DNA from: a virus
Reading direction: 5' to 3' (one strand)
DNA: 34,202 bases
IMG/VR virus record: IMGVR_UViG_3300031647_000028
The notes beneath the pieces were generated by a model. The model searched no databases and was not told the DNA's origin. It worked only from the letters and a program-made list of their open reading frames with translations. A program made the translations under genes and the position numbers. Shown here piece after piece: positions 426-22,434 of this stretch. Position 1 is the first letter of the stretch. Each line of letters begins with the position of its first letter.

Positions 426-448
426 TCATAATTCCTTAATCATTTTTT

Positions 449-2372: not shown

Positions 2373-2382
2373 AGTTAAATAA

Positions 2383-5428: not shown

Positions 5429-5437
5429 TTATTACTC

Positions 5438-6243: not shown

Positions 6244-6460
6244 TTGTGTTTAATCGTTTGTTCTCACGCATATTCCAACGGTGTGTATCAGCTGCAAAAG
6301 AGCGATAATCTTGACCAAATTGGAAATTAGTGCAGAATGTTAGTTCATAGTAAGAAGGTTCTCCGCAGTCTGGACAGACTTGTGGTTCTTCACGTTTACT
6401 GTAAGAAACTATATTATCTTCAGTATGGTTATTTTTACATTTATAAGTAAATAGCGGCAT
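6224..6460 (-). CDS. Putative zinc-ribbon protein (FmdB-like)
   Basis: 78 aa. YKCKNNH...VCPDCGEP resembles a small zinc-ribbon regulator pattern. Confidence 0.4.
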   Translation of the reverse strand: MPLFTYKCKNNHTEDNIVSYSKREEPQVCPDCGEPSYYELTFCTNFQFGQDYRSFAADTHRWNMRENKRLNTNGKNYV

Positions 6461-6483
6461 AACTAATCCTAATTAATTCAGAA

Positions 6484-6509
6484 TAGCCCTCTCATCTAGA
6501 CAAGGGCTA
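6484..6509 (-). terminator. Hairpin after the major capsid gene (possible terminator/attenuator)
   Basis: On the minus strand, a 7-bp stem UAGCCCU/AGGGCUA with a 12-nt loop is followed by UUCUGAAUUAAUU. It begins 19 nt after the capsid stop codon. Confidence 0.4.
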
Positions 6510-6527
6510 CGCTTAACTAACTAACTA

Positions 6528-7445
6528 CTACGACTGTGGACATACGAACGCTACACCAGCGTAATCACGTAATCCAGAAACACCGTAAATAGTATCAGCA
6601 GTAAACAAGTCACCTAAGTATTCTTGTTTGTACTGAGTTTGCGAACGAACGCCAACTTGCTCTGCAAGAACTAAAGCGTCTTTATGCATTAACATACCTA
6701 CACGACCAGTTGTACTGATTGAAGGACAGTTATTAGTTACCAACACATCTACACCGTAGATTTGTCCGATAGTACCATTCTTAATAGCATCACCGTTACC
6801 AATGAACTGTTGCTCAGTGAAACGTGCGATAGCTAATAAGTCATTAGCAGCTACTGGAGGTAGCACTAAAGAACGGTTATCCATAGGAACATCAGAATTA
6901 TCTAACTTGAGAATCATCTGTCTGATACCAGCGTCAGTAAGAGTTGAAGCATTACTAGAGTTACCAGTGTATAACGTAGTACCGTCACCGATTACAGCTT
7001 TCTCCCATAAATTAGCGGCTGCGCCACCTGCTGTTCCACCTTGGAACTCTTCAGCTAAAGCGAATAAGTCATCTTCCACTTGATTAGCTAGTGCATAACC
7101 AGCGTCATCAGTGTAGAACTTACGCATTGAAGCTAATGCTTGAACTTCAGCAATATCTTCAATCAACTTCGAGTATTCGTAGTGTTTGTTAATGCTAATT
7201 GCTACAACACCTGCTGTATCAGCAATCATTGTAACCTGTGAATTAGCAGCTTTTACAGATGCAGTACCACGAGCAGGAACAGGGATATTAATAGTATCGC
7301 CTTTCTTACCTTTGTGAGACATCTTTGTAACTAAGTTTGCAACAACTAAGTTTTGTTTGTACGCACCAATAACTTCATCCGACCATAGAGCAGGGATGAA
7401 ATTAGCTGATGTTGTAATCGTACTATGGTTAGTACCTAAACCCAT
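6528..7445 (-). CDS. Major capsid protein
   Basis: 305 aa, immediately after the scaffold-like gene. The N-terminal ...FIPALWSDEV... motif and the size fit podovirus HK97-fold capsid proteins. A hairpin follows the gene. Confidence 0.7.
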   Translation of the reverse strand: MGLGTNHSTITTSANFIPALWSDEVIGAYKQNLVVANLVTKMSHKGKKGDTINIPVPARGTASVKAANSQVTMIADTAGVVAISINKHYEYSKLIEDIAEVQALASMRKFYTDDAGYALANQVEDDLFALAEEFQGGTAGGAAANLWEKAVIGDGTTLYTGNSSNASTLTDAGIRQMILKLDNSDVPMDNRSLVLPPVAANDLLAIARFTEQQFIGNGDAIKNGTIGQIYGVDVLVTNNCPSISTTGRVGMLMHKDALVLAEQVGVRSQTQYKQEYLGDLFTADTIYGVSGLRDYAGVAFVCPQS

Positions 7446-7466
7446 CTTATTTCTCCTTATTGAGTA

Positions 7467-8264
7467 TTATTTAACGCGCCCTTCCTGGTATGCAATAGTT
7501 ATCTCATCTGATAAATCTGCATACCTTTGAGGGTCGCTCACTTGTAGGTTGATTAAATCACTCCTACGATACATCTTCTTACCACCAACAGAATCTCCTG
7601 AAGATCGAGTCTCTGAACTGGTTTGTCGCATTGCCTTCTTTCTCTTATTTTCTTCAGCCTTATTTACTGCTTGTGTCTTATCGATCATTGAAATTTGCTT
7701 CCAAGTACCTAATAATTCATTTGCAGAGTTGAAGTCATAATTAGCATCGGCTCTGCGGAACAGCTCGGTACGAATACCACTCTCTCCCACCCACTTTTGA
7801 AAGTCGCTATTACCAATAACATCCATGAAATCAGGATGAGTTGACTCTAACTGTGTTAAATTAGCTTTTTGGGCTGACTTAACGTTACCTTCTCTAGCTT
7901 TGACAATTTCTGGATGATTTTCTATCGCTGAGTTAACTGCTTTCGCAGGGTCATCGTAAAAATTATCTTCAAAACTGACATTTTCTTCTGTTGTCTCAGC
8001 AGTTTGACCAGCCTGTGACTTGGACATAAGTTGTTCGATTAGCTGACGCTGATCTCCGACTGTCTGACCTTGTGAACCAAACGCCCTTTCGACATTTTGG
8101 TGCATGTTAATCACATCCTCTAATGACTTCCCAGCATACTTCTCTGGAACTACATATTCTGGCTCTGCTTGAATTTCTTCTTGCTGAACCTCTTGTGTAA
8201 TTTCTTGAGTTTCTGTTACCTGTTCGCCTACACCTTCGGGTGCTACATCTACTACTATACTCAT
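7467..8264 (-). CDS. Scaffolding protein
   Basis: 265 aa, acidic and Gln/Glu-rich, predicted helical. It lies between the portal and capsid genes. Confidence 0.5.
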   Translation of the reverse strand: MSIVVDVAPEGVGEQVTETQEITQEVQQEEIQAEPEYVVPEKYAGKSLEDVINMHQNVERAFGSQGQTVGDQRQLIEQLMSKSQAGQTAETTEENVSFEDNFYDDPAKAVNSAIENHPEIVKAREGNVKSAQKANLTQLESTHPDFMDVIGNSDFQKWVGESGIRTELFRRADANYDFNSANELLGTWKQISMIDKTQAVNKAEENKRKKAMRQTSSETRSSGDSVGGKKMYRRSDLINLQVSDPQRYADLSDEITIAYQEGRVK

Positions 8265-10574: not shown

Positions 10575-11825
10575 TTAATATCCTGCGACCTCATCTTCAG
10601 GCTGCCAATCGTCTTCAAGCTCGATTGTGTGGGCGAAATCAGCAACAGACACTTGATCAATGTACGCAAGAGCGTCCAACATATCATCATGTGATAATCT
10701 ATTAGGGAAATCAACCATCTGAGAGATAAACGGTCGCCAATCTCTATCTTCATTGAACGATATTTGACCATGTTCCATTCTACCTTGTAAAGACCATACA
10801 ATTCTGTCAGCCTTTTTCTTACCACCATGTCTCATCTCAATAATCGATACATATTGACCTTGTGTTCGCATCTCATCCTCTAAATAAGGCAAGATAGCGT
10901 TCTTCAGCGAACCAGTTTCAATACCAACAGTCGAAGATTCAACAATTACCGCAGATGTAAGTATCTTTCTAGCTGTTTCCTTGATATTCCAACGACCATG
11001 TAGTATATCTTTAACCCACCACTTGTCTCTATCTATCTTAACAATAGCAATAGCAGTTTCATCAAGTCTTGATCGTTTCAAATTACGTTCTTTCTCAATA
11101 GCTTCAAATCCAGCAGGATCAATAGCAATAACATACGACCCCTCTTCTGGTTCTTCTGCTGTTTTAAACCATTCCTCTTTAAACACACCACCAGAGAAGG
11201 TTTCAAAGGATGCTTCAAACTCTTGACGAAATGACATAGACGACATAGAGTCTCTTGCAGCTTCAATTTCATCATCAGGAATAAACGGGTTATCAGTTGA
11301 GTTAAACTGGAAGGCTTCCCAGTCATCTAGCTTCATTGCATCTTGATAAACGTCATAGAAGTGATTCTTACCTGCTGGAGTACCAATAAACATAGCACCA
11401 CCACGAACGTCCGCAAGAGTAGGTCGAATAATCTGTTCCCACACGTTAGGTTTCATAGAAGCGTACTCATCTAGTACAACATAAGCCAAACCAACACCAC
11501 GCAATGTATCAGGTCTATCAGATCCTTTCAAATAGATCTTCCTACCGTTTACAAGCGTTAATACAGCAGTGTTCTCATGAGCAGCAACGATCAAATCTTC
11601 ACCTAGCTCTTTTAACATCGCCCACATAATGTCTTTAGATTGTTGAAACGTAGGACCAATATAAAACACGTCTTTTGAATCAGACTGTAAAGCTTTAATT
11701 AACAAGATCCAAGCAGCAAGCCTAGACTTACCGAATCTACGTCCAGCAGCCACAGCTTTAAATCTAGCAGTTGAATTGAATATCTCTAACTGAGCAGGAT
11801 GAAGGTCAACGTTTAATTCAGGCAT
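10575..11825 (-). CDS. terL: Terminase large subunit
   Basis: Walker A-like AAGRRFGKS, Walker B-like VVLDEYAS, and a C-terminal nuclease-like IAIDPAG...D motif. 416 aa. Confidence 0.85.
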   Translation of the reverse strand: MPELNVDLHPAQLEIFNSTARFKAVAAGRRFGKSRLAAWILLIKALQSDSKDVFYIGPTFQQSKDIMWAMLKELGEDLIVAAHENTAVLTLVNGRKIYLKGSDRPDTLRGVGLAYVVLDEYASMKPNVWEQIIRPTLADVRGGAMFIGTPAGKNHFYDVYQDAMKLDDWEAFQFNSTDNPFIPDDEIEAARDSMSSMSFRQEFEASFETFSGGVFKEEWFKTAEEPEEGSYVIAIDPAGFEAIEKERNLKRSRLDETAIAIVKIDRDKWWVKDILHGRWNIKETARKILTSAVIVESSTVGIETGSLKNAILPYLEDEMRTQGQYVSIIEMRHGGKKKADRIVWSLQGRMEHGQISFNEDRDWRPFISQMVDFPNRLSHDDMLDALAYIDQVSVADFAHTIELEDDWQPEDEVAGY

Positions 11826-11925
11826 CCTTCTTTTCCTTTTGTTCTTTAACTAACTTCCTAAGCTTTTCAAGTAGCTTACTTTGCCTAGCTTGTCTAGCCC
11901 AGTAATTTTCAGGTAGTTCATTCAC
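11818..11925 (-). CDS. Possible 35-aa GTG-start ORF bridging terS-like and terL
   Basis: VNELPENYWARQARQSKLLEKLRKLVKEQKEKKDA. The GTG overlaps the upstream TGA, and its TGA overlaps the TerL ATG (ATGCCTGA). No clear SD. Confidence 0.2.
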   Translation of the reverse strand: MNELPENYWARQARQSKLLEKLRKLVKEQKEKKDA

Positions 11926-12308
11926 TCTATAACCTCACCTACTTCAATTATCAAATCATCATCTTGCTTAGTTTTAGGATTAACAAGTTTAGCAGGATCA
12001 GTATCAGCTATCTTAGCCTCTATTCCAGTAGAAGCACCAACATTAATAATAATCTTAGAGTCTTGTTTTGTTCTACTAGGATCAACAGCTTTATGAACAG
12101 GCAAGATACGATCAATACACATCTTCAAACAATGAACATCACCATCCATAGCCATATCAACAATCTTCTGTACGATGTCAGGCCCTTTCTCGGTCATCAT
12201 TTCTCTAGCTAGTAGTGTGTACTTGTTACGAATACCCTTAGGTCTTCCTAAAGGATTCATAGCCTTACCCTTCACCATTGCAGGATTACCACGTCTTTTC
12301 TCTGTCAT
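11922..12308 (-). CDS. Putative terminase small subunit / DNA-binding protein
   Basis: 128 aa, first gene of the late operon and immediately upstream of terL. It has a basic N-terminus RRGNPAMVKGKAMNPLGRPKGIRNK. GGGAG lies upstream of the ATG. Confidence 0.4.
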   Translation of the reverse strand: MTEKRRGNPAMVKGKAMNPLGRPKGIRNKYTLLAREMMTEKGPDIVQKIVDMAMDGDVHCLKMCIDRILPVHKAVDPSRTKQDSKIIINVGASTGIEAKIADTDPAKLVNPKTKQDDDLIIEVGEVIE

Positions 12309-12395
12309 TTAATTATCTCCCTGTAAGAGGTTAAAGTATCATTATTATATACTGAAGCAAATACATAAACATAAACAATATCAATATATTATGAC

Positions 12396-12424
12396 TTGAC
12401 AGTATTCGTTTCGTCAGCTAAAAT
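12396..12424 (+). promoter_or_regulatory. Near-consensus sigma70-type promoter facing ORF-free DNA
   Basis: TTGACA (12396-12401), 17-nt spacer, TAAAAT (12419-12424). Confidence 0.45.
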
Positions 12425-12753
12425 CCTTCTTAACTAGTTAGCCAACACATAGTAGTAATCACTTATCCCTTCTAAAGCTAACATAGTTAATGCGGATAGC
12501 CTCTTATGGCTATATTCCCATTTCTCCTCTTTTTTGAAATCCCGTTTTTTCTGTCTTGGGTATAGCATCCATTACTGCAAGCAAGCAAGTGAGCCTCCCC
12601 CTATCGATTAGCTTAAAAGCTAAAAAGATACACTCTTAAACATAGCTTAAAGCCTTACATAGCACCGATTAAACGCCAGCTTACACAATATGAGAGATAA
12701 AAAGAAAATGAGTAGGATTAGCAACCCAGGCTTATTTACTCCAAACCCTTATA

Positions 12754-12949
12754 GATCCTGGCTAACAATTAACTAAGCATCTACTAATCTTATTGATCTA
12801 ATGATCCTGGCCTTCATAGATCACTTAATCCTGGTTGATCTCTTCTAACTGATCAACTTCTATTCATTCCAGATCGTATGATCCTGGATCGTTTTATCTT
12901 TGATCGTAGCTAATTTATCTTTTATCGGAGCAAAAACGCTTGATCCTGG
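12754..12949 (+). repeat. Five dispersed GATCCTGG-type 8-mers (iteron-like)
   Basis: GATCCTGG at 12754, 12803, 12880 and 12942; AATCCTGG at 12827. All are in the same orientation. Each fuses a GATC and a CCWGG site. Confidence 0.8.
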
Positions 12950-12958
12950 ATTGATTTA

Positions 12959-13027
12959 ACTTCCAAAAACCATTTGACAGACTTCCAGAAGTTTAATTTA
13001 ACTTCCTACATGACTTCCAATGCTTCC
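12959..13027 (+). repeat. ACTTCC short direct repeats
   Basis: ACTTCC at 12959, 12981, 13001 and 13013; GCTTCC at 13022. TTTAACTTCC occurs twice. TTGACAG at 12974. Confidence 0.7.
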
Positions 13028-13040
13028 CAGGCTTTAAAAA

Positions 13041-13082
13041 TTACCAGGTATTGATCAAACTATTTACCAGGCTATGATCAAA
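13041..13082 (+). repeat. Two 19-nt direct repeats TTACCAGG-NNN-TGATCAAA, 23-bp period
   Basis: 13041-13059 ttaccaggtattgatcaaa and 13064-13082 ttaccaggctatgatcaaa. Confidence 0.8.
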
Positions 13083-13185
13083 AAGTTATTAACAATTATT
13101 AATACAAAATAATGCTTTGACAGTAGTATCTTAACACCTGGCCGCCAAATACTTATCCACTAAGTTATACAAAAGCAACAGGCAC

Positions 13186-13209
13186 AAAAAAACCAGCAAT
13201 TAATGCTGG
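13186..13209 (-). terminator. Rho-independent terminator (minus strand) after the leftward early operon
   Basis: Minus-strand RNA reads CCAGCA-UUAAU-UGCUGG followed by U7. It lies about 100 nt downstream of the stop at 13305. Confidence 0.65.
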
Positions 13210-13304
13210 CTTAATATTCCCCCCTTTTAACTGATCAACTGAATAACTGATCTATTACCGCTTGAATCATTAGATCAACCGCCATTAACGCCTGGATCAA
13301 CTGA

Positions 13305-13628
13305 TCAAGCATTGGCAAACGCTTTTAGATCGTTCAAATGATCTTCCAGGATTTGATCGTTACCCGTTACAAGATCCCAAAAGCCAGGCTTGATCTGATA
13401 CGCTCTCATTCCTACAACCTTTTCGGGGAAGCCTTTATATAATCTCATAATGTTTGATCCATCTGCATGAGCCATAGTCAAAGATAGTTTATTTTCAAAC
13501 CCTCCCAGGCCTCCAAACTGCCAACCTTTCAAAAAGTTAATATCGCTATCGTTATAAACCTCCTCCAGGCTTGCATTTAGTATCCATGTATCTAAAGCTA
13601 TTAATTTTCTTGTGTTTGATCTTCCCAT
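13305..13628 (-). CDS. Hypothetical 107-aa early protein
   Basis: ORF with a 1-nt overlap to the upstream gene. No recognisable domain. Confidence 0.55.
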   Translation of the reverse strand: MGRSNTRKLIALDTWILNASLEEVYNDSDINFLKGWQFGGLGGFENKLSLTMAHADGSNIMRLYKGFPEKVVGMRAYQIKPGFWDLVTGNDQILEDHLNDLKAFANA

Positions 13629-13816
13629 TACATGCCCGCCTTTATTATTAGTAGTTGATCTAATACACTTTGTTTAGATCCTTTTAAGTTATATTCCACC
13701 TTTGCCATTTTATAAGCCGAAGTGCCTGATTTTTTCATACCTAAAATTTCAAGCTTTAGCGCCTGGATCAAAGATAGAAACCTAAAACAATTAATTTCTT
13801 TTTGTTTAATTAACAT
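13628..13816 (-). CDS. Hypothetical 62-aa early protein
   Basis: ORF with 1-nt overlaps on both sides. Confidence 0.45.
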   Translation of the reverse strand: MLIKQKEINCFRFLSLIQALKLEILGMKKSGTSAYKMAKVEYNLKGSKQSVLDQLLIIKAGM

Positions 13817-14097
13817 TAGTTAACCTCCGTTATTGAATTGATCAATGCATCTTGTAAATGGATCGTTGCAAGTGTTTCGCTGTTAATACTTTGAAACGTG
13901 TATCCGATGTTATCGGCCAGGTTAAAAGACTCTACCAGGCTTGCATCATTTTCGGCCAGGTATTGCATTGCCTTATGGTAGTAAATTATCTCTTGCTCCT
14001 GGCACCACTCTATCGCTTGATCGTAATCTTCAAACTTCATAATTTCACCGTGATATGTATCATCTACTGAGTAACTTTCTTTTATATCGTTTTGCAT
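13816..14097 (-). CDS. Hypothetical strongly acidic 93-aa early protein
   Basis: GGAG upstream of the ATG. About 18 D/E versus 3 K and 0 R by my count. Confidence 0.55.
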   Translation of the reverse strand: MQNDIKESYSVDDTYHGEIMKFEDYDQAIEWCQEQEIIYYHKAMQYLAENDASLVESFNLADNIGYTFQSINSETLATIHLQDALINSITEVN

Positions 14098-14146
14098 AAT
14101 CTAATCTCCATGATTAAAAACAAGATCAAAATTGATCCATGCCGAA

Positions 14147-14180
14147 ATTATAACCTGGCCTGGCCTGGCATATTATTCAA
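14147..14180 (-). promoter_or_regulatory. Promoter-like element with a 22-nt spacer made of three abutting CCWGG sites
   Basis: On the minus strand: TTGAAT (14180-14175), then a 22-nt spacer containing GCCAGGCCAGGCCAGG, then TATAAT (14152-14147). It lies upstream of the 93-aa gene. Confidence 0.3.
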
Positions 14181-14222
14181 TTTGAAATATTAATTTTATT
14201 AAAAATCCCTATGTTACGGGCG

Positions 14223-14257
14223 AAAAAAAACCCACCTTAGTAAAAACTTTAGGCGGG
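14223..14257 (-). terminator. Rho-independent terminator (minus strand) inside the leftward early operon
   Basis: Minus-strand RNA stem CCCGCCU/AGGUGGG (7 bp, one G-U pair) followed by U8. Confidence 0.6.
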
Positions 14258-14258
14258 C

Positions 14259-14313
14259 TTTACGTTAACCGTTACGTGATCGTTACGTTGGCGTTACGTT
14301 GGCGTTACACGTT
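14259..14313 (+). repeat. Five CGTTACGT-like units with an exact 11-bp period
   Basis: Units start at 14259 (tttacgtt), 14270, 14281 and 14292 (cgttacgt), and 14303 (cgttacacgt). The array overlaps the last codons and stop of the 87-aa ORF. Confidence 0.85.
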
Positions 14314-14557
14314 GACCAGGTTGTAAGTTACCGTTGCTAGGGATCACGGGCATATCATCAAAGGGAGTGAAAAACACTCCGCCTTCATTACCCTCATCAT
14401 CACAGCTTGCCAAAATATACGTGCCATCAGTAAAGATAATCATCGGAGCAGATTTATTCCAACCCAAATTCTTTAGATCCCTGGTAGTGGTGTATTCAAT
14501 TTTTTCAACTATCTTGCCTTCAAACAATTTAGTTGCATCTCCAATCCAATCTCTCAT
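14294..14557 (-). CDS. Hypothetical 87-aa early protein
   Basis: ORF with a 4-nt overlap to the upstream gene. No recognisable domain. Confidence 0.55.
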   Translation of the reverse strand: MRDWIGDATKLFEGKIVEKIEYTTTRDLKNLGWNKSAPMIIFTDGTYILASCDDEGNEGGVFFTPFDDMPVIPSNGNLQPGQRVTPT

Positions 14558-14892
14558 AGTCTGATCTCCATTGATCCACCAAAAGGTTTAACACAGCCAC
14601 TTCCTGGAGAATAATACCAAACAAAATCTTTTTGGAATATATGGCCTAAATTCAAATGATCAAGAATACCATTCAATCGCTCTTTAGTAGTTACGGTTTG
14701 CCAACCTCCATCACTAAGCGTTATTGTTTTTCTCTTTTGGCCAGGATTTTCACTATCATTAAACCAGGCAATAGCGTTACCATGCAATCTCATAACGCCA
14801 TCACTAACACTCATATTTTGCTTATTCATTTTTCTATTATCAAACATTGTTTGAACACTATCTTTAGTTATTTGTCTCATTTTTTGCTCCAT
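14554..14892 (-). CDS. Hypothetical early protein (112 aa; more likely 108 aa from the ATG at 14880)
   Basis: First gene after the leftward promoter. The second in-frame ATG (14880) has GGAG 7 nt upstream, and the first ATG has no SD. Confidence 0.55.
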   Translation of the reverse strand: MEQKMRQITKDSVQTMFDNRKMNKQNMSVSDGVMRLHGNAIAWFNDSENPGQKRKTITLSDGGWQTVTTKERLNGILDHLNLGHIFQKDFVWYYSPGSGCVKPFGGSMEIRL

Positions 14893-14911
14893 GCTTTATT
14901 TAAGAAACCAA

Positions 14912-14939
14912 ATCATACCATGGGTATATACTTTTGCAA
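14912..14939 (-). promoter_or_regulatory. Leftward early promoter (sigma70-like, extended -10)
   Basis: On the minus strand: TTGCAA (14939-14934), 16-nt spacer, TGgTATGAT (-10 at 14917-12). Confidence 0.5.
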
Positions 14940-15015
14940 CACTTAAATTTCAAAATAAAAGTTATACATCAAGTTATACAAGGCTTTGACGCCTTCACTC
15001 CAACCATACGTTACG

Positions 15016-15183
15016 TTATCAACACGTATGTATAAGTAGTTATCCACAATCACGTTAAATTGTTAACAACTAAGGCAAAAGGTAAGAGTTATCCACTTAT
15101 CCACAATCCTATACAATTGTTATCAACAGCTTTATCCACTATGCAAGTCATTGATTTAACAGTAAAAACTGAAGTTATCAACA
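15016..15183 (+). promoter_or_regulatory. Array of seven same-orientation DnaA-box-like 9-mers
   Basis: TTATCCACA at 15040 and 15097 (perfect). TTATCCACT at 15089 and 15132. TTATCAACA at 15016, 15120 and 15175. Confidence 0.7.
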
Positions 15184-15198
15184 GAAAAAGAGGCCACT

Positions 15199-15237
15199 AA
15201 TAATAATAATAATAAAAAAAAGAAAAAAGAAAAAAGA
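15199..15237 (+). repeat. C-free A/T-rich tract (AAT)5-A8-G-A6-G-A6-G-A; candidate DNA-unwinding/bent element
   Basis: Read directly. 39 nt with no C and three G on the plus strand. Confidence 0.6.
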
Positions 15238-15286
15238 TTTAGATCAATCGAACGTTAATCAATTTAAGTTAATTCAGTATATGCTA

Positions 15287-15315
15287 TTGACACACCGTAT
15301 TTAAACGAGTACAAT
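15287..15315 (+). promoter_or_regulatory. Rightward early promoter (sigma70-like)
   Basis: TTGACA (15287-15292), 17-nt spacer, TACAAT (15310-15315). Confidence 0.6.
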
Positions 15316-15384
15316 ATGAAACATATAACGCTGAAGTCCACGTTATAAGCGGGTTTAACGTTGTGTTAAGCTAGTTTTTAAAGG

Positions 15385-15414
15385 TCGTTACGAAGTAGTA
15401 CGAAGTCGTTACGA
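15385..15414 (+). promoter_or_regulatory. Operator-like direct repeats in the rightward leader
   Basis: TCGTTACGA at 15385 and 15406 (21-bp spacing) flank tandem TACGAAGT units. They lie between the promoter and the first gene. Confidence 0.4.
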
Positions 15415-15433
15415 TCAAACAATGGAGTAGTTT

Positions 15434-15730
15434 ATGACAAACAAAGAAGCAAGGGCAATCTGGCCAATGTTAAGTTTAAAAAGAGATCATCAAGTTGGTA
15501 TAAGTAATCAAGAAAGAATCAAGTTATTAGATATCGATATTGATGTATTGATCTTTATACAATCTCATCACAGAGTTACAACTAACAAAGTATATGCAAC
15601 CAAATACTTTAGAGATTATGGTTTTTCAACGATCAAACGAGCAATTGATAAATTATACAAAGCTAAAATCATTTCAAAAACTGTTGATTCGATAGATGCA
15701 AGGAAACGTATTTTGGAGTTAATAACATGA
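15434..15730 (+). CDS. MarR-like winged-helix DNA-binding protein
   Basis: 98 aa. ...STIKRAIDKLYKAKIISKTVDSIDARKRILELIT resembles the MarR recognition helix, wing and DxR motif. GGAG lies 7 nt upstream. First gene of the rightward operon. Confidence 0.5.
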   Translation: MTNKEARAIWPMLSLKRDHQVGISNQERIKLLDIDIDVLIFIQSHHRVTTNKVYATKYFRDYGFSTIKRAIDKLYKAKIISKTVDSIDARKRILELIT

Positions 15731-15963
15731 AGGAATTAAAAGAAAATATCAAGAATCTAGTTGATGAAAGTAGAGATTGTAAAGCGAAGCTTCAGGATCT
15801 ATATACGGCCGTTACGGGCGAGTTAACTGATGTCAGCATGCATAGTCATATAGACGTTGTAAACATGGCCATGATCGCTAAAGAAGCTAATGATTTAATA
15901 AGCTATACAACTTCAGATGAGTATGTTTCTTTGTTTAATCTAATGCAAGAGGATGAGTCATGA
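15727..15963 (+). CDS. Hypothetical acidic 78-aa protein
   Basis: ATGA overlap with the upstream gene. Confidence 0.5.
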   Translation: MKELKENIKNLVDESRDCKAKLQDLYTAVTGELTDVSMHSHIDVVNMAMIAKEANDLISYTTSDEYVSLFNLMQEDES

Positions 15964-16184
15964 TCATAGAAATCAAACCAAACGAATACATAAACACGGA
16001 TCATATTATTTACTTTAAAAGATCAATGGATATTAAACACGGATTTAATAACACTATCACTGAGCATTGGCATGTATATGTCGATTTAGTTGGGCGTAGC
16101 ATCACTATAAACTTTGATCAAGATGAAGCTGAAGCTAACGTATTGATCCGTAAACTACTAAAGGCCTGTAATGAAAACATTTAA
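15960..16184 (+). CDS. Hypothetical 74-aa protein
   Basis: ATGA overlap with the upstream gene. Confidence 0.5.
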   Translation: MIIEIKPNEYINTDHIIYFKRSMDIKHGFNNTITEHWHVYVDLVGRSITINFDQDEAEANVLIRKLLKACNENI

Positions 16185-16410
16185 AGCAAGATTTAACGAG
16201 TATGAAGTTATGGAAACAGTTAGTGGATTATATCTAACTACTACATTACCAACTGATCATACGGAGTGGAGCGATAGTTATTGGGAAGACTTTTTGTTAT
16301 CGAATGTTGCTGAAGCTTACGAGGATCTACCAGCCGAGGATATTATGGCTATGATCCATGAAACAACTTCAGTATTTATGGGAATGATCAAGGAAAAAGA
16401 AAATGTTTGA
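16171..16410 (+). CDS. Hypothetical acidic 79-aa protein
   Basis: ORF overlapping the upstream gene by 14 nt. Confidence 0.45.
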   Translation: MKTFKARFNEYEVMETVSGLYLTTTLPTDHTEWSDSYWEDFLLSNVAEAYEDLPAEDIMAMIHETTSVFMGMIKEKENV

Positions 16411-16525
16411 TATTATGCTTGGAGCATTGATCTTATACATGGCCTTCAAGTTAACATACTTGATCGAATACAACGATAAAATAATTAATAGAGGTGAAGA
16501 TGAACACAACGTTAATTATCCTTAG
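16403..16525 (+). CDS. Possible 40-aa small membrane protein
   Basis: Not in the track. MFDIMLGALILYMAFKLTYLIEYNDKIINRGEDEHNVNYP. The ATG overlaps the upstream stop (ATGTTTGA). Confidence 0.3.
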   Translation: MFDIMLGALILYMAFKLTYLIEYNDKIINRGEDEHNVNYP

Positions 16526-16634
16526 TTTGATCTATATATCTCTAGAAGCCTTTACTTACCTACTCTACAGAGATTACAAAAGATCACAAGTAGAGTATAA
16601 GAAGTGTATAATAACAATTTTAAAGAGGAGATAA
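16500..16634 (+). CDS. Possible 44-aa small membrane protein
   Basis: Not in the track. MNTTLIILSLIYISLEAFTYLLYRDYKRSQVEYKKCIITILKRR. GAGGTG SD lies upstream. Confidence 0.35.
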   Translation: MNTTLIILSLIYISLEAFTYLLYRDYKRSQVEYKKCIITILKRR

Positions 16635-16636
16635 TC

Positions 16637-16846
16637 ATGATTGATTACGAAAAAGAAGATCAAAGATCTGAAGAGTTATACGATGAACACGTTGATGCTT
16701 TAGCACACCTACCAAGAGAGATTTGGGATGAAGTTAGACACCTACCAACAGTCCAAGCAATATCTTTGGGCGGTCAACTATTATTTGTCAAAAGACAGAA
16801 GGATAGAAACAAAGCAATTGCTGATTCTATTTGGGGGGAAAGATAA
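16637..16846 (+). CDS. Hypothetical 69-aa protein
   Basis: Track ORF 16604-16846 trimmed to ATG 16637, which is preceded by AGGAG. Confidence 0.5.
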   Translation: MIDYEKEDQRSEELYDEHVDALAHLPREIWDEVRHLPTVQAISLGGQLLFVKRQKDRNKAIADSIWGER

Positions 16847-17082
16847 TGGGATATTTTTCTAATTTGCATTTAGAGATGCAAGAAGATAATGCTCACACAC
16901 AAAGTGAAGAGCCAGATTTTATGGCCTATGCTCATGAAGTTATGGCGACTGAAGAGTTTGCCAGGGATATGGTTGATCATGATCGAGGTTATGATGAATA
17001 CAAAGAAAAGAGAGCTGGAGTCTTTCCCGAGATTGACTTAGGCTTTTTAGACATAAGAAAAGGAGATAAAAATGGAAGCTAA
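16846..17082 (+). CDS. Hypothetical acidic 78-aa protein
   Basis: Track ORF (TTG at 16831) trimmed to ATG 16846, which overlaps the upstream TAA (TAATG). Confidence 0.5.
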   Translation: MGYFSNLHLEMQEDNAHTQSEEPDFMAYAHEVMATEEFARDMVDHDRGYDEYKEKRAGVFPEIDLGFLDIRKGDKNGS

Positions 17083-17659
17083 AACACTAAACATTTATGA
17101 AAGATTAGCAATGGCTAGAAACATGATCACGGGCGTTAAAAAGAAAGCGAGCAATCCCTTTTTCAAGAGCAAGTATGCTGATCTAAACAGCGTTATGGAT
17201 GCCTTAGCACCTTCATTGATCGAGTGTAATCTGATCTATGTTCAGTATGCTAACCGTATTGATGGAGTTGATGTATTAACAACCGAGTTGGTTAACATTC
17301 CCAATCCAGAAGAGAAGATCATAAGCCACACGCACCTGGTTATACCTAGTGCTGATATGCAAAAGCTTGGAGGTGCAATTACCTATGCAAGGCGTTATGC
17401 TTTAGTCACTATGTTTGGCCTAGAAGCCATTGATGATGATGGCAATGTTGCATCTGGAAAGGCAAAGCCAGCAACGGCTACACAAGAACACAACGCACGG
17501 ATGCTTGCTGGAAAGAAAGCATTAGACAAGGCGAAGAAAGAAAATGATTATGACTCTGCTAGTGATATGTATGACTATGCAGAGAAAAACGGATTTATAC
17601 AGATCTGTGACTATTATCACCAGCTATTTGATTCTAATGAGTCAAGTGAAGGTATGTAA
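17072..17659 (+). CDS. erf: ERF-family single-strand annealing protein
   Basis: FKSKYADLNSV...LGGAITYARRYALVTMFGLE matches the conserved ERF core (G-x-x-x-TYxRRY). Confidence 0.75.
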   Translation: MEAKTLNIYERLAMARNMITGVKKKASNPFFKSKYADLNSVMDALAPSLIECNLIYVQYANRIDGVDVLTTELVNIPNPEEKIISHTHLVIPSADMQKLGGAITYARRYALVTMFGLEAIDDDGNVASGKAKPATATQEHNARMLAGKKALDKAKKENDYDSASDMYDYAEKNGFIQICDYYHQLFDSNESSEGM

Positions 17660-17770
17660 ATTAAGCTGATCACAAAGCTTTTTCGGGGGTACTCCATGTC
17701 CTCGTTATTATTTCGATGTGCGAGTTGCTGGCGTTACCAGCTAACTTAATTTTAATAAAAGGAGTAAGAA

Positions 17771-18031
17771 ATGTCAGAATCATATGATAATACAAACCGC
17801 GGCCAGATCTGGAAAAACGATGATATTAAATCAGATAAGCACCCTCAATTCAAAGGCTCATTAAACGTTGATGGGGTAGAGTATTGGGTATCAGCCTGGA
17901 CAAGAAAGGAAGGAGCAAACCCTAAAGCACCAGCATTAACATTTAGCATTGCTAAGAAGGAAGACAAAGTAGCTGAAGTATCTGCTGATACAGTAGCACA
18001 AGATGGATTTGATGATGCGATCCCGTTTTAA
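17771..18031 (+). CDS. 86-aa protein with an SSB-type acidic C-terminal tip (mini-SSB or SSB-tip mimic)
   Basis: It ends in DGFDDAIPF (compare E. coli SSB ...MDFDDDIPF). It sits next to the ERF gene. AAGGAG SD lies upstream. Confidence 0.5.
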   Translation: MSESYDNTNRGQIWKNDDIKSDKHPQFKGSLNVDGVEYWVSAWTRKEGANPKAPALTFSIAKKEDKVAEVSADTVAQDGFDDAIPF

Positions 18032-18056
18032 ATAACAACATATAGGTAATAAAATC

Positions 18057-18719
18057 ATGGAGTATTCTATTATTGATAATGTAATTATCAACCACACACC
18101 ATACGATATAGAAGATTACACGGGGGCAAGCCTCCAATCTCTATTGACTAATAAAACAACCAAGCTATCGTTTAAGTTAACGGTATTCTTTGGTTATAAC
18201 GCTAGTAAAAATTCAGTTAGTCACACTATTGAAGTAACAGAAAATCAATACACAGCCTTGGCTGGAGCAGTTATTGATAAGAACAAAGATATGTTATTAA
18301 ACAATAAACAGATCCTATCTGATGATGAGTTATTTGGTAAACCTAGTACAACTACGTTACGTACTCGTAACGACTCTACTAATACTAATACTATACTTAC
18401 TACTATAAATACTAATACTAATACTAATACTAAGAAGGATCAAATTGAAAACTTCATTCCGAACGAGGCTTCAGAGAAAGCAGTTAGAGATAAGCACGTT
18501 GGCATAACAGCCAGCCAGGCTAATGATCTAATTCAGTCATTCAAAGATCAGATGCTGAATAGAACGGCCAAGTGGCAAGATCTACAGTCATGCTTTAGAA
18601 ACTACTTGAGAAAGGATTACATTGGTATTGATCAGTCAACTAAAAAGAAAGGCACGTTTGCTGGCATGAGTGACTCACGTAAAGCATTGATTGCTATGAA
18701 GCTGGGGGCAACACAATGA
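18057..18719 (+). CDS. Two-domain protein, weak replisome-organiser/replication-initiation candidate
   Basis: 220 aa. The N- and C-terminal parts are joined by a T/N low-complexity linker. The C-terminal W-x-D...F-x-N-Y-L pattern recalls DnaD/organiser-type domains (memory only). It sits in the recombination/replication module. Confidence 0.3.
   Translation: MEYSIIDNVIINHTPYDIEDYTGASLQSLLTNKTTKLSFKLTVFFGYNASKNSVSHTIEVTENQYTALAGAVIDKNKDMLLNNKQILSDDELFGKPSTTTLRTRNDSTNTNTILTTINTNTNTNTKKDQIENFIPNEASEKAVRDKHVGITASQANDLIQSFKDQMLNRTAKWQDLQSCFRNYLRKDYIGIDQSTKKKGTFAGMSDSRKALIAMKLGATQ
18355..18433 (+). repeat. Inverted CGTTACG pair plus a 61-nt G-free TACTAA-type hexamer repeat
   Basis: CGTTACG (18355-61), tact, CGTAACG (18366-72). 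Then 18373-18433 has no G and carries repeated tactaa/aatact units. Confidence 0.85.
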
Positions 18720-19165
18720 CTGAAGATGAAGTAAACACGCTGGCCAATGAGTTAGTAGAAGAGTTAATTGTATTCAACAAGATCAAGATGAACGTTAAGA
18801 ATATTTGGGCGACCAAGTTGATTGACTTCTTTTTGAGTGAGAAGCAAGACTACAACCTATTCCAGCACTCCAAGGTTATGAAGAGTATTCCGAAGATCCC
18901 AGCTGATGGTATCCAAGCATTACTTGAGTTGATTAAACAACAGAACAACCAGATGGAAACCAAGCTTATATCCAACACTACACACTCTAAGCCTAACTAT
19001 AGTAAGATATGGGATAAGTCTGATGAAAAGGCCAAGGCTTGCTTCTATGATACGTTTGATCCACAAGATGTATCGCCAGCAACCAAATGGTTTTCGAGAG
19101 AGTATTTCAGAGAGATTGGCTGGACTGAAAAACAAATTACAAGGACACTAGGATTGCCTTGGTAA
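18716..19165 (+). CDS. Hypothetical 149-aa protein
   Basis: ATGA overlap with the upstream gene. No recognisable motifs. Confidence 0.5.
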   Translation: MTEDEVNTLANELVEELIVFNKIKMNVKNIWATKLIDFFLSEKQDYNLFQHSKVMKSIPKIPADGIQALLELIKQQNNQMETKLISNTTHSKPNYSKIWDKSDEKAKACFYDTFDPQDVSPATKWFSREYFREIGWTEKQITRTLGLPW

Positions 19166-19196
19166 AACAATAATAATTAACGGGGGAAAGAATGTT

Positions 19197-19655
19197 ATGA
19201 AAAAAGCAGTAAAACAATACACACTTACTGATGGATCTACTTGGACAGCATTAGAGTTAAGTAAAAAATTAAATCTAACAACAACAGCTTGCAGATACAG
19301 ATTAGATCAGTCTAATAAAGTGGAGTGGGTAATGCGTGTTCAACATAAAGCGATGGGTCGCAAGAAAAAACATACTTGTAGAAAATTTACCTTATCAGAT
19401 GGATGCGTATTATCAGCCGAAGAGTGTGCAAAAAAATATAATATTTGCACTTCAACAATGTATGCAAGGTTACAAAGAAATATTAGAGATGTAGATACTC
19501 TTGGAAAGATACCCACAAAAGGAAGACAAAGCAACATTCATGCTGGATATGTGCCAATAGAAAAACAGCCAAACATTATTAAAAAATCTATTATGAAGCG
19601 TAATGCTTATGATCCAATGAGTAGACTATTCATGATGCTAGGAGCTGGAGCATGA
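19197..19655 (+). CDS. DNA-binding protein with two tandem HTH-like repeats
   Basis: YTLTDGSTWTALELSKKLNLTTTACRYRL and FTLSDGCVLSAEECAKKYNICTSTMYARLQR are internal repeats resembling NUMOD1/HTH modules. Confidence 0.4.
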   Translation: MKKAVKQYTLTDGSTWTALELSKKLNLTTTACRYRLDQSNKVEWVMRVQHKAMGRKKKHTCRKFTLSDGCVLSAEECAKKYNICTSTMYARLQRNIRDVDTLGKIPTKGRQSNIHAGYVPIEKQPNIIKKSIMKRNAYDPMSRLFMMLGAGA

Positions 19656-19945
19656 GTTATTACAATACTAACAATGAAGAGGGTAGTGCCCTTTCACGTT
19701 CAAGAGAAAATACTCAAAACCAAGAGGAGTTGATACTTGCTATCTTCAATAAAGAAGAGCGTCTTTCACCTGATGAAGTATTGGATGTATGTAACGAGGA
19801 GCATAACTATCCAATAACAAGTGTTAGGCGTGCCATGACAAACCTAACCAACAAAGGGCTGTTGATCAAAACAAATATATTTAAAAAGGGTAAGTACGGA
19901 AAGATGACACATACCTGGAAGCTTTCAAACGGAGAAATAAGATGA
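19652..19945 (+). CDS. Winged-helix DNA-binding protein
   Basis: EELILAIF...SPDEVLD...ITSVRRAMTNLTNKGLLIKT...GKMTHTWKL fits an HTH-plus-wing pattern. Confidence 0.45.
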   Translation: MSYYNTNNEEGSALSRSRENTQNQEELILAIFNKEERLSPDEVLDVCNEEHNYPITSVRRAMTNLTNKGLLIKTNIFKKGKYGKMTHTWKLSNGEIR

Positions 19946-20139
19946 AATTTCATGATGATGCGTTATGTAAACAAAAGATAGAGTGTATTCTTGGCTTCCT
20001 TAAAGAGATCAATGACATAGTTGAGTACCCAAGATCAGACAGAGAGCAGTTCATTAGATGCTCATTAGAGCAAGCATTGCAAGACTTGCAGTACCTGGAT
20101 AACGAGTTAGACCTTGGTGAGGATGAAACGCACTCATGA
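19942..20139 (+). CDS. Hypothetical 65-aa protein
   Basis: ATGA overlaps on both sides. Confidence 0.5.
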   Translation: MKFHDDALCKQKIECILGFLKEINDIVEYPRSDREQFIRCSLEQALQDLQYLDNELDLGEDETHS

Positions 20140-20528
20140 AGCATACATTCTATGTAACACCCGTTCCAGCAAGCCGACCTAGAGTAACAAGATGGTCAAC
20201 CTTTTATCCTAAGAAATATACAGAGTTCAGAGCTTCCATGAAAGTTGCATTGGGGGATGTGCAGTTTGTACCCTTTCAGACGAACGTATATGCGAAATTA
20301 GACTTCTTTGTGCAAATCCCTAAGTCTTGGTCGAAGAAGAAGAAATTAGAGTACCAGGGTCGTTTCTGTGACAATAACGCAGATATTGATAATTACTGTA
20401 AGGCTATACTAGATTCATTAAATGGTATATACTACGAAGACGATCGACAAATTGTGATGATACGTGCAAGAAAATATTGGTCGAACACTCCACGGATCAA
20501 GTGTGAGTTCTTAAAAATGCAAGACTAA
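20136..20528 (+). CDS. rusA: RusA-family Holliday junction resolvase
   Basis: ADIDNYCKAILDSLNGIYYEDDRQIV matches the RusA DxDNxxKxxxDxL...DD catalytic signature. 130 aa. Confidence 0.85.
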   Translation: MKHTFYVTPVPASRPRVTRWSTFYPKKYTEFRASMKVALGDVQFVPFQTNVYAKLDFFVQIPKSWSKKKKLEYQGRFCDNNADIDNYCKAILDSLNGIYYEDDRQIVMIRARKYWSNTPRIKCEFLKMQD

Positions 20529-20542
20529 ACTTGGGGAAGTTA

Positions 20543-20710
20543 ATGACAACAACAGAAATGTGTATAAAACTAGCTGAAGACTACGCTGACCGTGCCACTA
20601 AAGGTGGTGCTAACTATGATGATGCGTATGAGCATTATCTAACGAGATGTTTGAATAGGAACGAGAAAGAATTGAAACAACAGGTTGATGTTCAAGGTCT
20701 TAATCCCTAG
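20543..20710 (+). CDS. Possible 55-aa hypothetical protein
   Basis: Not in the track. MTTTEMCIKLAEDYADRATKGGANYDDAYEHYLTRCLNRNEKELKQQVDVQGLNP. GGGGAAG lies upstream of the ATG. Confidence 0.4.
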   Translation: MTTTEMCIKLAEDYADRATKGGANYDDAYEHYLTRCLNRNEKELKQQVDVQGLNP

Positions 20711-20869
20711 TAATTTAGTGCGTGAATAGTTGAAAAAACACTATGGGGGGTGAAAAAACAAATCTGAGGAGATTCCTATCCACGCGTGCTAACTATACCA
20801 TATTCCAACAAATAGTCAAGTGTATCTATAGTGTATAATAGTATTATTTATAGCACACAATAGGGCATT

Positions 20870-22424: not shown

Positions 22425-22434
22425 GTTACTTCTC

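Follow-up and report, generated by a model that had tools for sequence, protein, structure and literature searches.

SeqA sequesters clusters of GATC at oriC and at the dnaA promoter, phage P1 times the cleavage of its pac site and initiation at oriR by their methylation state, both being gated by Dam, and Dam also controls Mu mom and IS10. Phage genomes are expected to lose palindromes that are targets of restriction or methylation. In Escherichia coli and Salmonella, intragenic clusters of GATC have been suggested to stop transcription in the hemimethylated state, above all at low temperature, a function which is hypothetical (Henaut 1996; Riva 2004, PMC493266). Here we analysed a stretch of 34,202 nucleotides (the window), which is the complete circular genome (34.1 kb, with a 62-bp end overlap) of a podophage, and in which a zone at 12720-14770 is densely filled with GATC and CCWGG. 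Like oriC, the zone has several clustered DnaA boxes and an AT-rich element as neighbours, and like P1 pac/oriR it has GATC repeats in or beside the small-terminase region, near DnaA boxes and iteron-like repeats.

The zone was recovered at 97-99.9% identity in independent assemblies from other samples, which rules out an assembly artefact. The closest variants and relatives come from samples which, from their identifiers, we take to be polar marine. DNA searches of GenBank phages, run at two sensitivities, left the zone without a match and returned a single 40-bp hit for the genome as a whole, and searches with the large terminase (TerL) and portal proteins found only distant cultured relatives (22-48% identical). 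A TerL search of genomes for the host returned two short MAG contigs only, which are probably binned phage DNA. Rfam and tRNA scans were empty, and GC skew follows the direction of transcription only. No methyltransferase motif was found in the complete genome, neither DPPY/NPPY nor PCQ...ENV being present in any real ORF, and Pfam and/or PHROGs searches with the 40 larger ORFs matched no methyltransferase family. Relatives were collected with the small-terminase gene (TerS) as anchor, giving 58 from IMG/VR and 447 confirmed matches among metagenome contigs, 80 of which were fetched.

Motif excess and selection on the DNA

Exact counting found 28 CCWGG (12726-14764) and 39 GATC (12754-14658) in the zone, out of 50 and 158 in the whole window, while the density elsewhere in the window predicted 1.4 and 7.6 sites, respectively. 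The excess is about 17-20-fold for CCWGG and about 5-fold for GATC, and the binomial probability was 1.5e-21 for at least 28 of the 50 CCWGG falling in 6% of the genome and 3e-14 for at least 39 of the 158 GATC falling in the zone. When all 4-6-mers were scanned, CCAGG, CCAGGC, GATCA and CCTGGC came out as the four most locally clustered words, all in the zone. Fitting a maximal-order Markov model to the zone itself was uninformative, since CCAG and CAGG there lie almost entirely inside CCWGG. GATC forms clusters of 11 sites in 12754-12942 (about 190 bp) and 11 in 13233-13392 (160 bp), and 11 of the 39 sites fit, on one strand or the other, the hexamer TGATC(A/G) whose repeats flank the cleavage point in P1-type pac sites; the candidate pac core conserved here has none of the motifs. 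A sequence-only reading of this DNA had given the same totals, and its listed positions were right except that one CCWGG lies at 13565 and not 13564. It had also judged CCWGG to be near expectation elsewhere, and the 0.69/kb that we measured outside the zone bears this out; its statement that GATC is raised in the plus-strand early operon agrees with our counts there (GATC 43 observed vs 18.7 by synonymous resampling, CCWGG 7 vs 1.3, GGCC 10 vs 3.5). GATC and GGCC are over-represented in early genes and under-represented in late ones; all 30 GGCC of the window fall in 12181-23361, and positions 1-7500 have only 2 GATC. This contrast, which could be due to mosaic ancestry, is imperfect, because the late-operon parts at 7.6-12.1 kb and 21-25.6 kb have normal GATC density.

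The sites are selected at the DNA level. Synonymous-codon resampling of the five ORFs with late-gene usage gave 4.1 +/- 0.9 CCWGG (maximum 8 in 1000 trials) against 14 observed, and 6.7 +/- 2.0 GATC (maximum 14) against 18 observed. As the resampled genes never reach the observed counts, the excess, which runs over coding and non-coding DNA, is not a codon artefact, as the sequence-only reading had argued. One-mismatch neighbours of CCWGG number 10 against 36 expected, all six classes being depleted. Codon alignments showed that the sites were built by synonymous and non-synonymous substitutions that are missing from the homologous genes of relatives, for example TTA to CTG in o62/o93 together with changes in adjacent codons. 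Only 2 of 81 population variants touch motif bases (alignment-edge columns set aside), though these bases make up 14% of the zone; close variants keep the sites and have newly gained further ones. The earlier proposal of a recently acquired foreign segment is rejected, because the five ORFs have site-free homologues in relatives and the sites arose by point substitutions in place; GC is unchanged (36.9% in the zone vs 38.1% overall). Across 427 island GATC sites from 11 loci we noticed no flanking consensus, and therefore the bare 4-bp palindrome is the selected unit, as expected for a methylase or a methyl-reader. An all-pair spacing histogram of the same sites showed no clear periodicity, local 10-bp arrays being seen in two relatives only (L049 and L037).

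Layout of the zone and its flanks

The zone lies between the origin-like region and TerS (Table 1). It takes in two predicted terminators, iteron-like repeats, the site arrays and five small ORFs that are genuine genes. Downstream of TerS follow TerL (10575-11825) and then an SU10-type portal.

Table 1. Features mapped in and around the zone, in window coordinates
Feature	Position	Strand	Remarks
Small terminase-like gene (TerS, DUF5681)	11922..12308	-	Pfam match; heads long leftward late operon
Conserved motif-free regulatory block	12309..12719	.	0 GATC, 0 CCWGG, 0 GGCC in 411 bp
Predicted TerS-proximal TATAAT promoter	inside 12309..12719	-	conserved in 11 aligned subclade members
Predicted back-to-back promoter, TTGACA-17-TAAAAT	12396-12424	+	conserved in 11 aligned subclade members
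Strongly conserved core	12530-12601		TTTTTTGAAATCCCG ... TGAGCCTCCCCC; conserved in 11 aligned subclade members; candidate TerS recognition (pac) element
Non-coding site arrays	12720..13150	.	composite GATCCTGG four times, at 12754, 12803, 12880, 12942
DnaA box TTATCCACT	13153	read on +	sole DnaA box inside the zone
Predicted intrinsic terminator of leftward small-gene operon	stem 13190-13212	-	T-run on minus strand
Conserved 27-aa ORF (MLDQLI...)	13235..13318	-	Asp-Leu/Asp-Gln codons supply conserved GATC
o107	13305..13628	-	107 aa, all-helical; gene holds 7 GATC, 4 CCWGG
o62	13628-13816	-	small early gene
o93	13816-14097	-	small early gene
Promoter-like element, putatively of o93 sub-operon	14124..14168	-	perfect TATAAT, (CCAGG)3 directly before (14144-14168), two GATC after; read from sequence
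Internal terminator-like hairpin with T8 run	about 14222-14262	-	of intrinsic type
Four 11-bp CGTTACGT repeats	14270-14310		after hairpin with T8 run
o87	14294-14557	-	small ORF
o112	14554-14892	-	Kyano_Gp96 / phrog_554 family
Origin-like region	15016..15260	+	seven DnaA boxes on one strand, two perfect TTATCCACA
Rightward early operon	15287..20528	+	wHTH protein, Erf, SSB-like, RusA, others; predicted promoter 15287-15315

In the motif-free block next to TerS no conserved RNA fold and no Rfam family was found, and a non-coding RNA reading of the 300-nt conserved block downstream of the 12396 promoter was dropped because its consensus fold reached only -3.5 kcal/mol with almost no covariation. 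The site arrays begin about 410 bp upstream of TerS, at the same place as in relatives, and 12720-13304 holds 11 CCWGG and 17 GATC together with four iteron-like ACTTCC repeats (12959-13018), for which relatives have TGGAAGTTAAA. The relatives' counterpart of the arrays is unalignable, yet it has GATC arrays and TGGAAGT(TAAA) repeats, and in the array-free L003 it is about 250 bp shorter. The terminator at the left end of the small-gene operon and DnaA-box-like sequences are conserved in relatives. The word GATCCTGGC is also found in the 5' end of 16S rRNA genes (primer 8F), a likeness which we judged a coincidence produced by the overlap of GATC and CCTGG.

All five zone ORFs have homologues in relatives, those of o62/o93 occurring in L003, L022, L059-61 and L134, and an analogue of the 27-aa ORF, also small and hydrophobic, is present in L134 and L049. 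Together o62 and o93 carry 5 CCWGG and 6 GATC, and o87 and o112 carry 5 of each. Against Pfam and PHROGs the five ORFs matched only families without assigned function, and o93, o107 and o112 had no match in PDB by sequence. o107 is rare, with only 8 clusters in 5.8 billion proteins, and its AF2 model (pLDDT 74, shallow alignment) gave no Foldseek match in PDB and no recognisable DNA-binding fold. Copies of CGTTAC, as in the repeats after the T8 hairpin, recur at 15009, 15386 and 15407, on either side of the early control region.

The AT-richest 60-mer of the genome lies at 15198, just after the seven-box cluster. The origin-like region has no CCWGG and a single GATC, at its right edge (15242), and none falls inside the cluster (15016-15183) or the A-rich run (15190-15235); 14893-15433 as a whole has only 2 GATC (15242, 15413), both outside boxes and run. 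A 7-9-box DnaA cluster occupies the same relative position in L059, L061, L083, L126, L022 and L003, and none was found in the available DNA of L049 and the L134 clade, which have the densest GATC islands. Alongside the iteron-like repeats, the DnaA box and the site arrays, no replication initiator or helicase could be recognised among the early phage proteins, which do include Erf, RusA and an SSB-like protein.

The island in related phages

Upstream of TerS, about a quarter of some 106 related loci show this island, which is made of GATC (up to 33/kb) or CCWGG (15/kb), at times with GGCC. CCWGG islands were found in L143 (15/kb) and L048, and both motifs are combined in the phage studied here. 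Another quarter or so has essentially none of the three motifs in that stretch; 29 relatives are essentially without GATC or CCWGG upstream of TerS, with GGCC at most 1.3/kb, and several are almost motif-free over 10-20 kb, with for example 0 GATC in 17-20 kb. Thus the relatives bear out the remark of the sequence-only reading that phages normally deplete such palindromes. It had also proposed that the motifs be followed through related phages: distant homologues do not keep the individual CCWGG sites, but the island stays in its position while its motif switches, and the sites are conserved among close variants. When all 4-, 5- and 6-bp palindromes were examined in the 2.6 kb upstream of TerS of about 100 relatives, no other G/C-containing one was enriched, and enrichment of AT-only palindromes is due to the AT-richness of intergenic DNA.

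Motif switching and purging in relatives fit a strong interaction with methylation or restriction. The lineage reverses palindrome shedding at a fixed genomic position with the motif swapped between relatives, which implies that DNA marks written by the host bring a benefit that is strong and portable. Among at least 120 IMG/VR loci listed with CCAGGC in three neighbouring copies, local enrichment of CCWGG stayed within about 6-fold in every case, and we found no account of such islands in the searchable literature on GATC/CCWGG clusters in phages. Its presence in relatives suggests that phages may make use of host methylation in a manner not described before.

Explanations and comparison with known systems

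Our leading reading, held tentatively and at somewhat less than even chances, is that the zone is a region sensing methylation state, written by host enzymes, which would couple replication to early shut-off and to late and packaging functions. Of the options offered by the sequence-only reading, a sensing or SeqA-type region and an origin-timing region are the most plausible, because the zone adjoins the origin-like DnaA-box cluster and the terminase genes. On this view a small lytic podophage that depends on its host would have its control region here, with a DnaA-box/AT-rich origin on one side and the start of the late operon on the other, and selection would have packed this region through point substitutions with GATC, CCWGG and some GGCC up to the limit set by sequence constraint. 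As we recognised no methyltransferase in the phage, the marks would have to come from enzymes of the host; we assume Dam, Dcm or SeqA in the host, and we infer the methylation of the sites, a reader and the regulatory consequences. The methylation state of the arrays may then serve as a replication-coupled signal. The incoming genome would be fully methylated, the first forks from the adjacent origin would leave the island hemimethylated and later unmethylated, and a reader of that state, SeqA-like for GATC, would coat or vacate the region, so that early genes and origin re-firing are turned off while late transcription and packaging are licensed from the neighbouring promoter/pac block. The early enrichment and late depletion of GATC and GGCC are as hemimethylation-dependent early shut-off would select. 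As both the DnaA-box cluster and the 12309-12719 promoter/pac block are motif-free, methylation cannot gate them directly, unlike oriC or P1 pac. This speaks against the reading, as do the lack of clear helical phasing between GATC pairs, the normal GATC density of some late-operon parts and the lack of a DnaA-box cluster in the available DNA of L049 and the L134 clade. We know of no reader of hemimethylated CCWGG or GGCC. A bolder joint claim, which we consider doubtful, is that an abundant family of uncultured marine podophages carries a kilobase-scale "methylation-site island", rapidly re-tooled to whichever palindrome (GATC, CCWGG or GGCC) the methyltransferases of the host of the moment modify, as an epigenetic clock or sensor without a methylase of its own, with o107 as a new reader or modulator of GATC state, and that this is the first regulatory use of Dcm-type arrays.

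The sites may instead bind a phage protein irrespective of methylation, the o107 family in the case of GATC, which would coat the origin-pac DNA for initiation of replication or packaging or for protection. Homologues of o107 are confined to relatives with a GATC island (11 of 11 bearing loci, 7 lineages; none in relatives without one), longer words or phasing occur in some non-coding arrays (same-strand ACCAGGCA in L048, GGATCTGG at 10-bp spacing in L049 and L037, the four composites here), CCWGG has a mild G(-1)/C(+1) flank preference, and TGGAAGT iteron-like repeats lie beside the arrays. However, 4-5 bp is too short for a specific binder, GATC has no flank consensus and the context of intragenic sites varies freely; L022, L083, L037 and the CCWGG islands lack o107, whose model has no recognisable DNA-binding fold, and both the choice of canonical methylase targets and the purging in relatives are left unexplained. 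We regard this alternative as unlikely.

A sink or decoy, in which the number of sites titrates host SeqA, a methylase, a restriction enzyme or a methyl-dependent nuclease and sites gather where constraint is weakest (non-coding DNA and accessory early genes), appears less probable again. It would account for the avoidance of conserved cores and the filling of variable DNA and fast-evolving small ORFs, for the lack of clear phasing or a flank rule and for the enrichment of the rightward early operon, and restriction-type pressure on the same motifs is strong in relatives. Extra unmethylated sites, however, should increase sensitivity to type II restriction, and CCWGG is sharply local (10.7/kb in zone genes vs 1.4/kb in the early operon), at the same position in all relatives; to our knowledge no phage decoy of this type has been described. 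Slightly less probable still is a recombination hot spot by pac, where dense m6A promotes strand exchange for circularising terminally redundant ends or for Erf/SSB/RusA recombination-dependent replication. The recombination genes, the missing initiator or helicase, the adjoining TerS and the contig ends of population variants, which cluster in the zone, agree with it, and Dam methylation enhances RecA-mediated recombination (PMC12403123), but the published effect is modest, and this explanation covers GATC alone, neither CCWGG nor GGCC. A neutral origin by acquisition, by mutational or repair bias or by codon effects is largely refuted and highly improbable: very-short-patch (Vsr) repair favours CCWGG over CTWGG and palindrome usage is mosaic along the genome, but such repair would give a modest excess and not a 17-20-fold one, the depleted neighbours extend beyond its substrates (CTWGG/CCWAG) to all six classes, resampling excludes codon effects, homologous genes in relatives lack the sites, the GC content of the zone is unchanged, and sites are kept and still being gained in the population.

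The sensing reading, if true, would give Dcm-type sites a regulatory role and let a viral contig signature reveal the methylation specificities of an unidentified host; the analysis also singles out candidates that can be tested, namely the o107 family, a conserved core without the motifs for pac, and the cluster of DnaA boxes for the origin. Compared with palindrome avoidance in phages, the same motifs are purged in many relatives and in the late genes of this phage, while the island shows the opposite trend within the same genome. As in Dam-controlled promoters (Mu mom, IS10 transposase, pap), (CCAGG)3 stands just upstream of TATAAT at 14144-14168, but those promoters use 2-4 sites in a specific protein-binding site and here dozens stand in arrays. 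As in E. coli and Salmonella, GATC clusters lie within coding sequences, but those clusters have at least 4 sites within tens of bp, whereas here three motifs are involved and the density is kept up for kilobases. In P1, pacA contains 7 sites within 162 bp and the phage makes a Dam of its own, whereas here 39 to more than 60 sites spread over 2-2.6 kb upstream of TerS, no methylase was found and the conserved candidate pac core is motif-free. The SeqA-read clusters at oriC and the dnaA promoter are comparable in local GATC density (11 in 245 bp in oriC vs 11 in about 190 bp and 11 in 160 bp here) and in the proposed logic of replication, hemimethylation and reading; on the other hand, the DnaA boxes and the AT-rich run are free of GATC here, the island extends for 2 kb through genes of a lytic phage with no clear helical phasing, and the enrichment takes in CCWGG and GGCC, which stand in for GATC in some relatives. 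Should the proposed replication-coupled switch be real, the oriC/SeqA and P1 pac paradigm would extend to lytic environmental phages.

Target-site excess between the late and early operons

The window ends 1-62 and 34141-34202 are identical over 62 bp, so the record is a complete circular assembly of ~34,140 bp. Judged by its gene content, the phage is a podophage, with recognisable late genes for a TerS-like DUF5681 protein, TerL, an SU10-type portal and adaptor and a capsid protein, and an early operon that encodes a wHTH protein, Erf, an SSB-like protein and RusA. Nothing in this gene content was recognisable as an integrase, replication initiator, polymerase or DNA methyltransferase, no methyltransferase catalytic motif lies inside a real ORF of the complete genome, and no close GenBank relative of the phage was found. 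The late/structural operon also includes, at 1545-2372, a gene for a protein with a sulfotransferase domain (Pfam Sulfotransfer_1/3; gene calls on identical contigs). The zone rich in CCWGG and GATC (12720-14770) occupies the gap separating the late and early operons.

Features of the control region and its surroundings
Feature	Position	Strand or direction	Remarks
Late operon	from TerS (12308) round the circle to 21034	leftward	
Motif-free conserved block	12309-12719		back-to-back promoters and strongly conserved core; none of GATC, CCWGG, GGCC
Promoter TTGACA-17-TAAAAT	12396-12424	away from TerS	conserved
Conserved core TTTTTTGAAATCCCG...TGAGCCTCCCCC	12530-12601		~250 bp upstream of TerS, downstream of the 12396-12424 promoter; candidate pac/TerS-binding element
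Non-coding site arrays	12720-13150		include the iteron-like repeats
Iteron-like repeats	12959-13018		four ACTTCC
DnaA box and intrinsic terminator	13153-13212		
Conserved 27-aa ORF	13235-13318		
Five small genes	13305-14892	leftward	interrupted by TATAAT promoter-like element and second hairpin terminator
o107	13305-13628		107 aa, all-helical model
Promoter-like element upstream of o93	14144-14168	minus	perfect TATAAT directly after CCAGGCCAGGCCAGG, i.e. (CCAGG)3, then two GATC
11-bp-spaced CGTTACGT repeats	14270-14310 (four tandem), 15009, 15386-15413		flank early control region on both sides
DnaA-box cluster	15016-15260	one strand	seven boxes, two perfect TTATCCACA; then genome's AT-richest 60-mer; divergent early control region
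Early operon	starts 15434	rightward	

Exact counting gave 28 CCWGG (12726-14764) and 39 GATC (12754-14658) in the zone, the same numbers that the sequence-only reading had obtained by hand, out of 50 and 158 in the whole window. At the densities seen elsewhere in the window the zone should hold 1.4 and 7.6 (binomial probabilities 1.5e-21 and 3e-14). That reading had also proposed a check of all 4-6-mers, and when these were scanned without bias the four most locally clustered words of the window were CCAGG, CCAGGC, GATCA and CCTGGC, all at the zone. Its claim that the excess is not a codon artefact held as well, since in 1000 trials of synonymous-codon resampling the five ORFs reached a mean of 4.1 CCWGG (maximum 8) against 14 observed, and of 6.7 GATC (maximum 14) against 18 observed. 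The GC content of the zone is normal (36.9% vs 38.1% for the window), and its sequence was recovered in independent assemblies from other samples at 97-99.9% identity.

Homologues of all five ORFs were found in related phages, and codon alignments with those lacking CCWGG showed how the sites of the window originated, namely by GCA-TGG to GCC-TGG, by TTA to CTG with the next codon beginning with G, and through amino-acid changes (Ile to Ala, Asn to Gln). Nine of the coding CCWGG sites lie in the frame xxC-CTG-Gxx, and CTG, otherwise rare, makes up 15% of Leu codons here vs 3% in late genes. One-mismatch neighbours of CCWGG numbered 10 in the zone vs 36 expected, with all six classes depleted, as near-cognate conversion under directional selection predicts; Vsr repair is expected to deplete CTWGG/CCWAG only. 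Among close population variants the zone has 86 variable positions, of which 2 fall in motif bases once the alignment edge is set aside, the motifs making up 14% of zone bases. Sites are also being gained in variants, by T-to-G at 13178, which creates CCTGG, and by GATG to GATC in L074. Judged from these sequence comparisons, the sites of the zone are selected as DNA. The near-identical variant contigs L001, L002 and L073-L076 tend to end in or beside the zone (13100-15000), and another, L071, has a ~165-bp insertion near 14890 with an additional 63-aa ORF; these breaks and the insertion suggest a microdiversity hot spot.

Outside the zone, the raised GATC noted earlier in the rightward early operon was borne out (43 observed, 18.7 expected) and extends to CCWGG (7 and 1.3) and GGCC (10 and 3.5). 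Early genes of both directions are enriched in all three motifs; depletion in late genes affects GATC (66 observed, 87 expected) and GGCC (9 and 21) but spares CCWGG. All 30 GGCC sites lie within 12181-23361 and none in the remaining 23 kb; 1-7500 holds two GATC; CCSGG (CCCGG/CCGGG) is absent from the genome, with ~17 expected, and the six CCGG sites all fall in 22490-24668. The early/late contrast could reflect selection by expression class or origin distance, or mosaic ancestry from motif-avoiding relatives; for the depletion, the normal GATC density outside the islands of the relatives L059 and L134 points to the mosaic.

The island in related phages

Relatives were gathered from IMG/VR and metagenomes with TerS as the anchor, and 106 non-identical loci could be scored over the 2.6 kb upstream of it, an island being called at GATC >=10/kb or CCWGG >=4/kb. 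Islands were present in 24 loci, the GATC-type ones having 10-33 GATC/kb and coming from at least seven lineages; the class also takes in CCWGG-only loci such as L143 and L048 (CCWGG 12-15/kb, GATC scarce). Another 53 loci were ordinary (GATC ~1-5/kb), and 29 had no GATC or CCWGG and no or nearly no GGCC, several of these being almost free of all three across 10-20 kb. A weaker CCWGG excess was noticed in L149, L151 and L154, and GGCC rises alongside in the window, L083, L086 and L126; no other G/C-containing palindrome was enriched in the window and relatives. As in the window, the excess spans a ~1-kb non-coding stretch and neighbouring small genes, and L049 carries 31 GATC within 1.7 kb of ORFs. 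The island thus belongs to the family as a whole, and its motif is interchangeable. As to conservation of the motifs in relatives, which the sequence-only reading had raised, island position is kept and close variants rarely vary at motif bases, but homologous genes occur without the CCWGG sites.

The non-coding order is conserved: terminator, DnaA box(es), TGGAAGT(TAAA) repeats, variable array, motif-free core (...GGGAGGCTCA...), promoters and TerS. Iteron-like repeats are conserved within the otherwise unalignable array region, as TGGAAGTTAAA in L022, L084, L086, L088, L126 and L134, and L003, which has no arrays, is ~250 bp shorter at that position. No flank consensus and no clear helical phasing were seen across 427 island GATC sites pooled from 11 loci, which implies that the selected unit is the bare short palindrome; CCWGG tends mildly to have G at -1 and C at +1. 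ORFs matching C5 (PCQ...ENV) or N6/N4 (DPPY/DPPW/SPPY) methyltransferase motifs, by motif match only, were found in L008/L009, L014, L027-29, L050, L058, L091/92, L108, L136, L137, L148 and L157, and none of these loci was scored as a GATC or CCWGG island.

The seven DnaA boxes at 15016-15260 and their A-rich run are free of the three motifs, with a single GATC (15242) at the right edge, and clusters of 7-9 boxes stand at the equivalent position in L059, L061, L083, L126, L022 and L003. The region is likely a DnaA-dependent origin, or else a promoter that titrates DnaA or is regulated by it; the phage carries no recognisable initiator. For the candidate pac core, neither a conserved RNA fold nor an Rfam match was found. 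The element at 14144-14168 is a possible promoter with the triple CCWGG as its -35 region, and the CGTTACGT repeats look like operators of some regulator.

Possible functions and known systems

The words involved are canonical methylase/restriction palindromes only, exchangeable among relatives and purged in sister lineages, which argues that being methyltransferase targets is what matters about them; as the phage has no recognisable methylase, the marks would come from host enzymes. The zone adjoins the origin-like DnaA-box/AT-rich element and lies upstream of the late promoter and the candidate pac core, and would be the first region hemimethylated once replication begins. Given this position, we tentatively favour a replication-coupled sensor of methylation state, which would silence early genes, keep the origin from firing again and clear the way for late transcription or packaging.

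That a phage protein coats the arrays is unlikely, its best support being o107, whose homologues are restricted to GATC-island relatives (11/11 loci, 7 lineages), together with some longer or phased words in the non-coding arrays; however, o107 is missing from several island-bearing loci and has no recognised fold or family. A 5.8-billion-protein database holds only 8 clusters of it. A sink or decoy, in which the number of sites would count and they would gather in the least constrained DNA, agrees with the motif-free cores and with the lack of a spacing or flank rule, but is hard to square with a CCWGG peak that is sharp and conserved in position, and with restriction kinetics, and we consider it distinctly improbable. 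We give slightly less credence still to a recombination hot spot, which would combine m6A-enhanced strand exchange (PMC12403123) with the Erf/SSB/RusA module; it explains GATC only. A neutral origin by foreign segment, Vsr bias or codon effect is very improbable, being contradicted by normal GC, synonymous resampling, all-class neighbour depletion and site-lacking homologues, the first and last of which speak against the recently acquired foreign segment that the sequence-only reading had offered as an option.

It is textbook knowledge that GATC clusters occur at origins and pac sites and that phages avoid palindromes. The searchable literature gave no description of a kilobase-scale island running through genes, of its gain by recent substitutions, of CCWGG and GGCC use beside GATC with motif switching in relatives, or of such an island in a phage with no recognisable methylase, and a limited IMG/VR probe gave no comparable CCWGG island elsewhere among the matches listed. 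We know of no reader for CCWGG or GGCC. The proposed sensor would resemble oriC/dnaA sequestration by SeqA, P1 pac and oriR, and Dam-controlled promoters. In oriC and P1, however, DnaA or terminase sites are gated directly, whereas the conserved cores here are motif-free, which excludes direct gating in that manner; the zone is classed with the methylation-site clusters of replication/packaging control regions.
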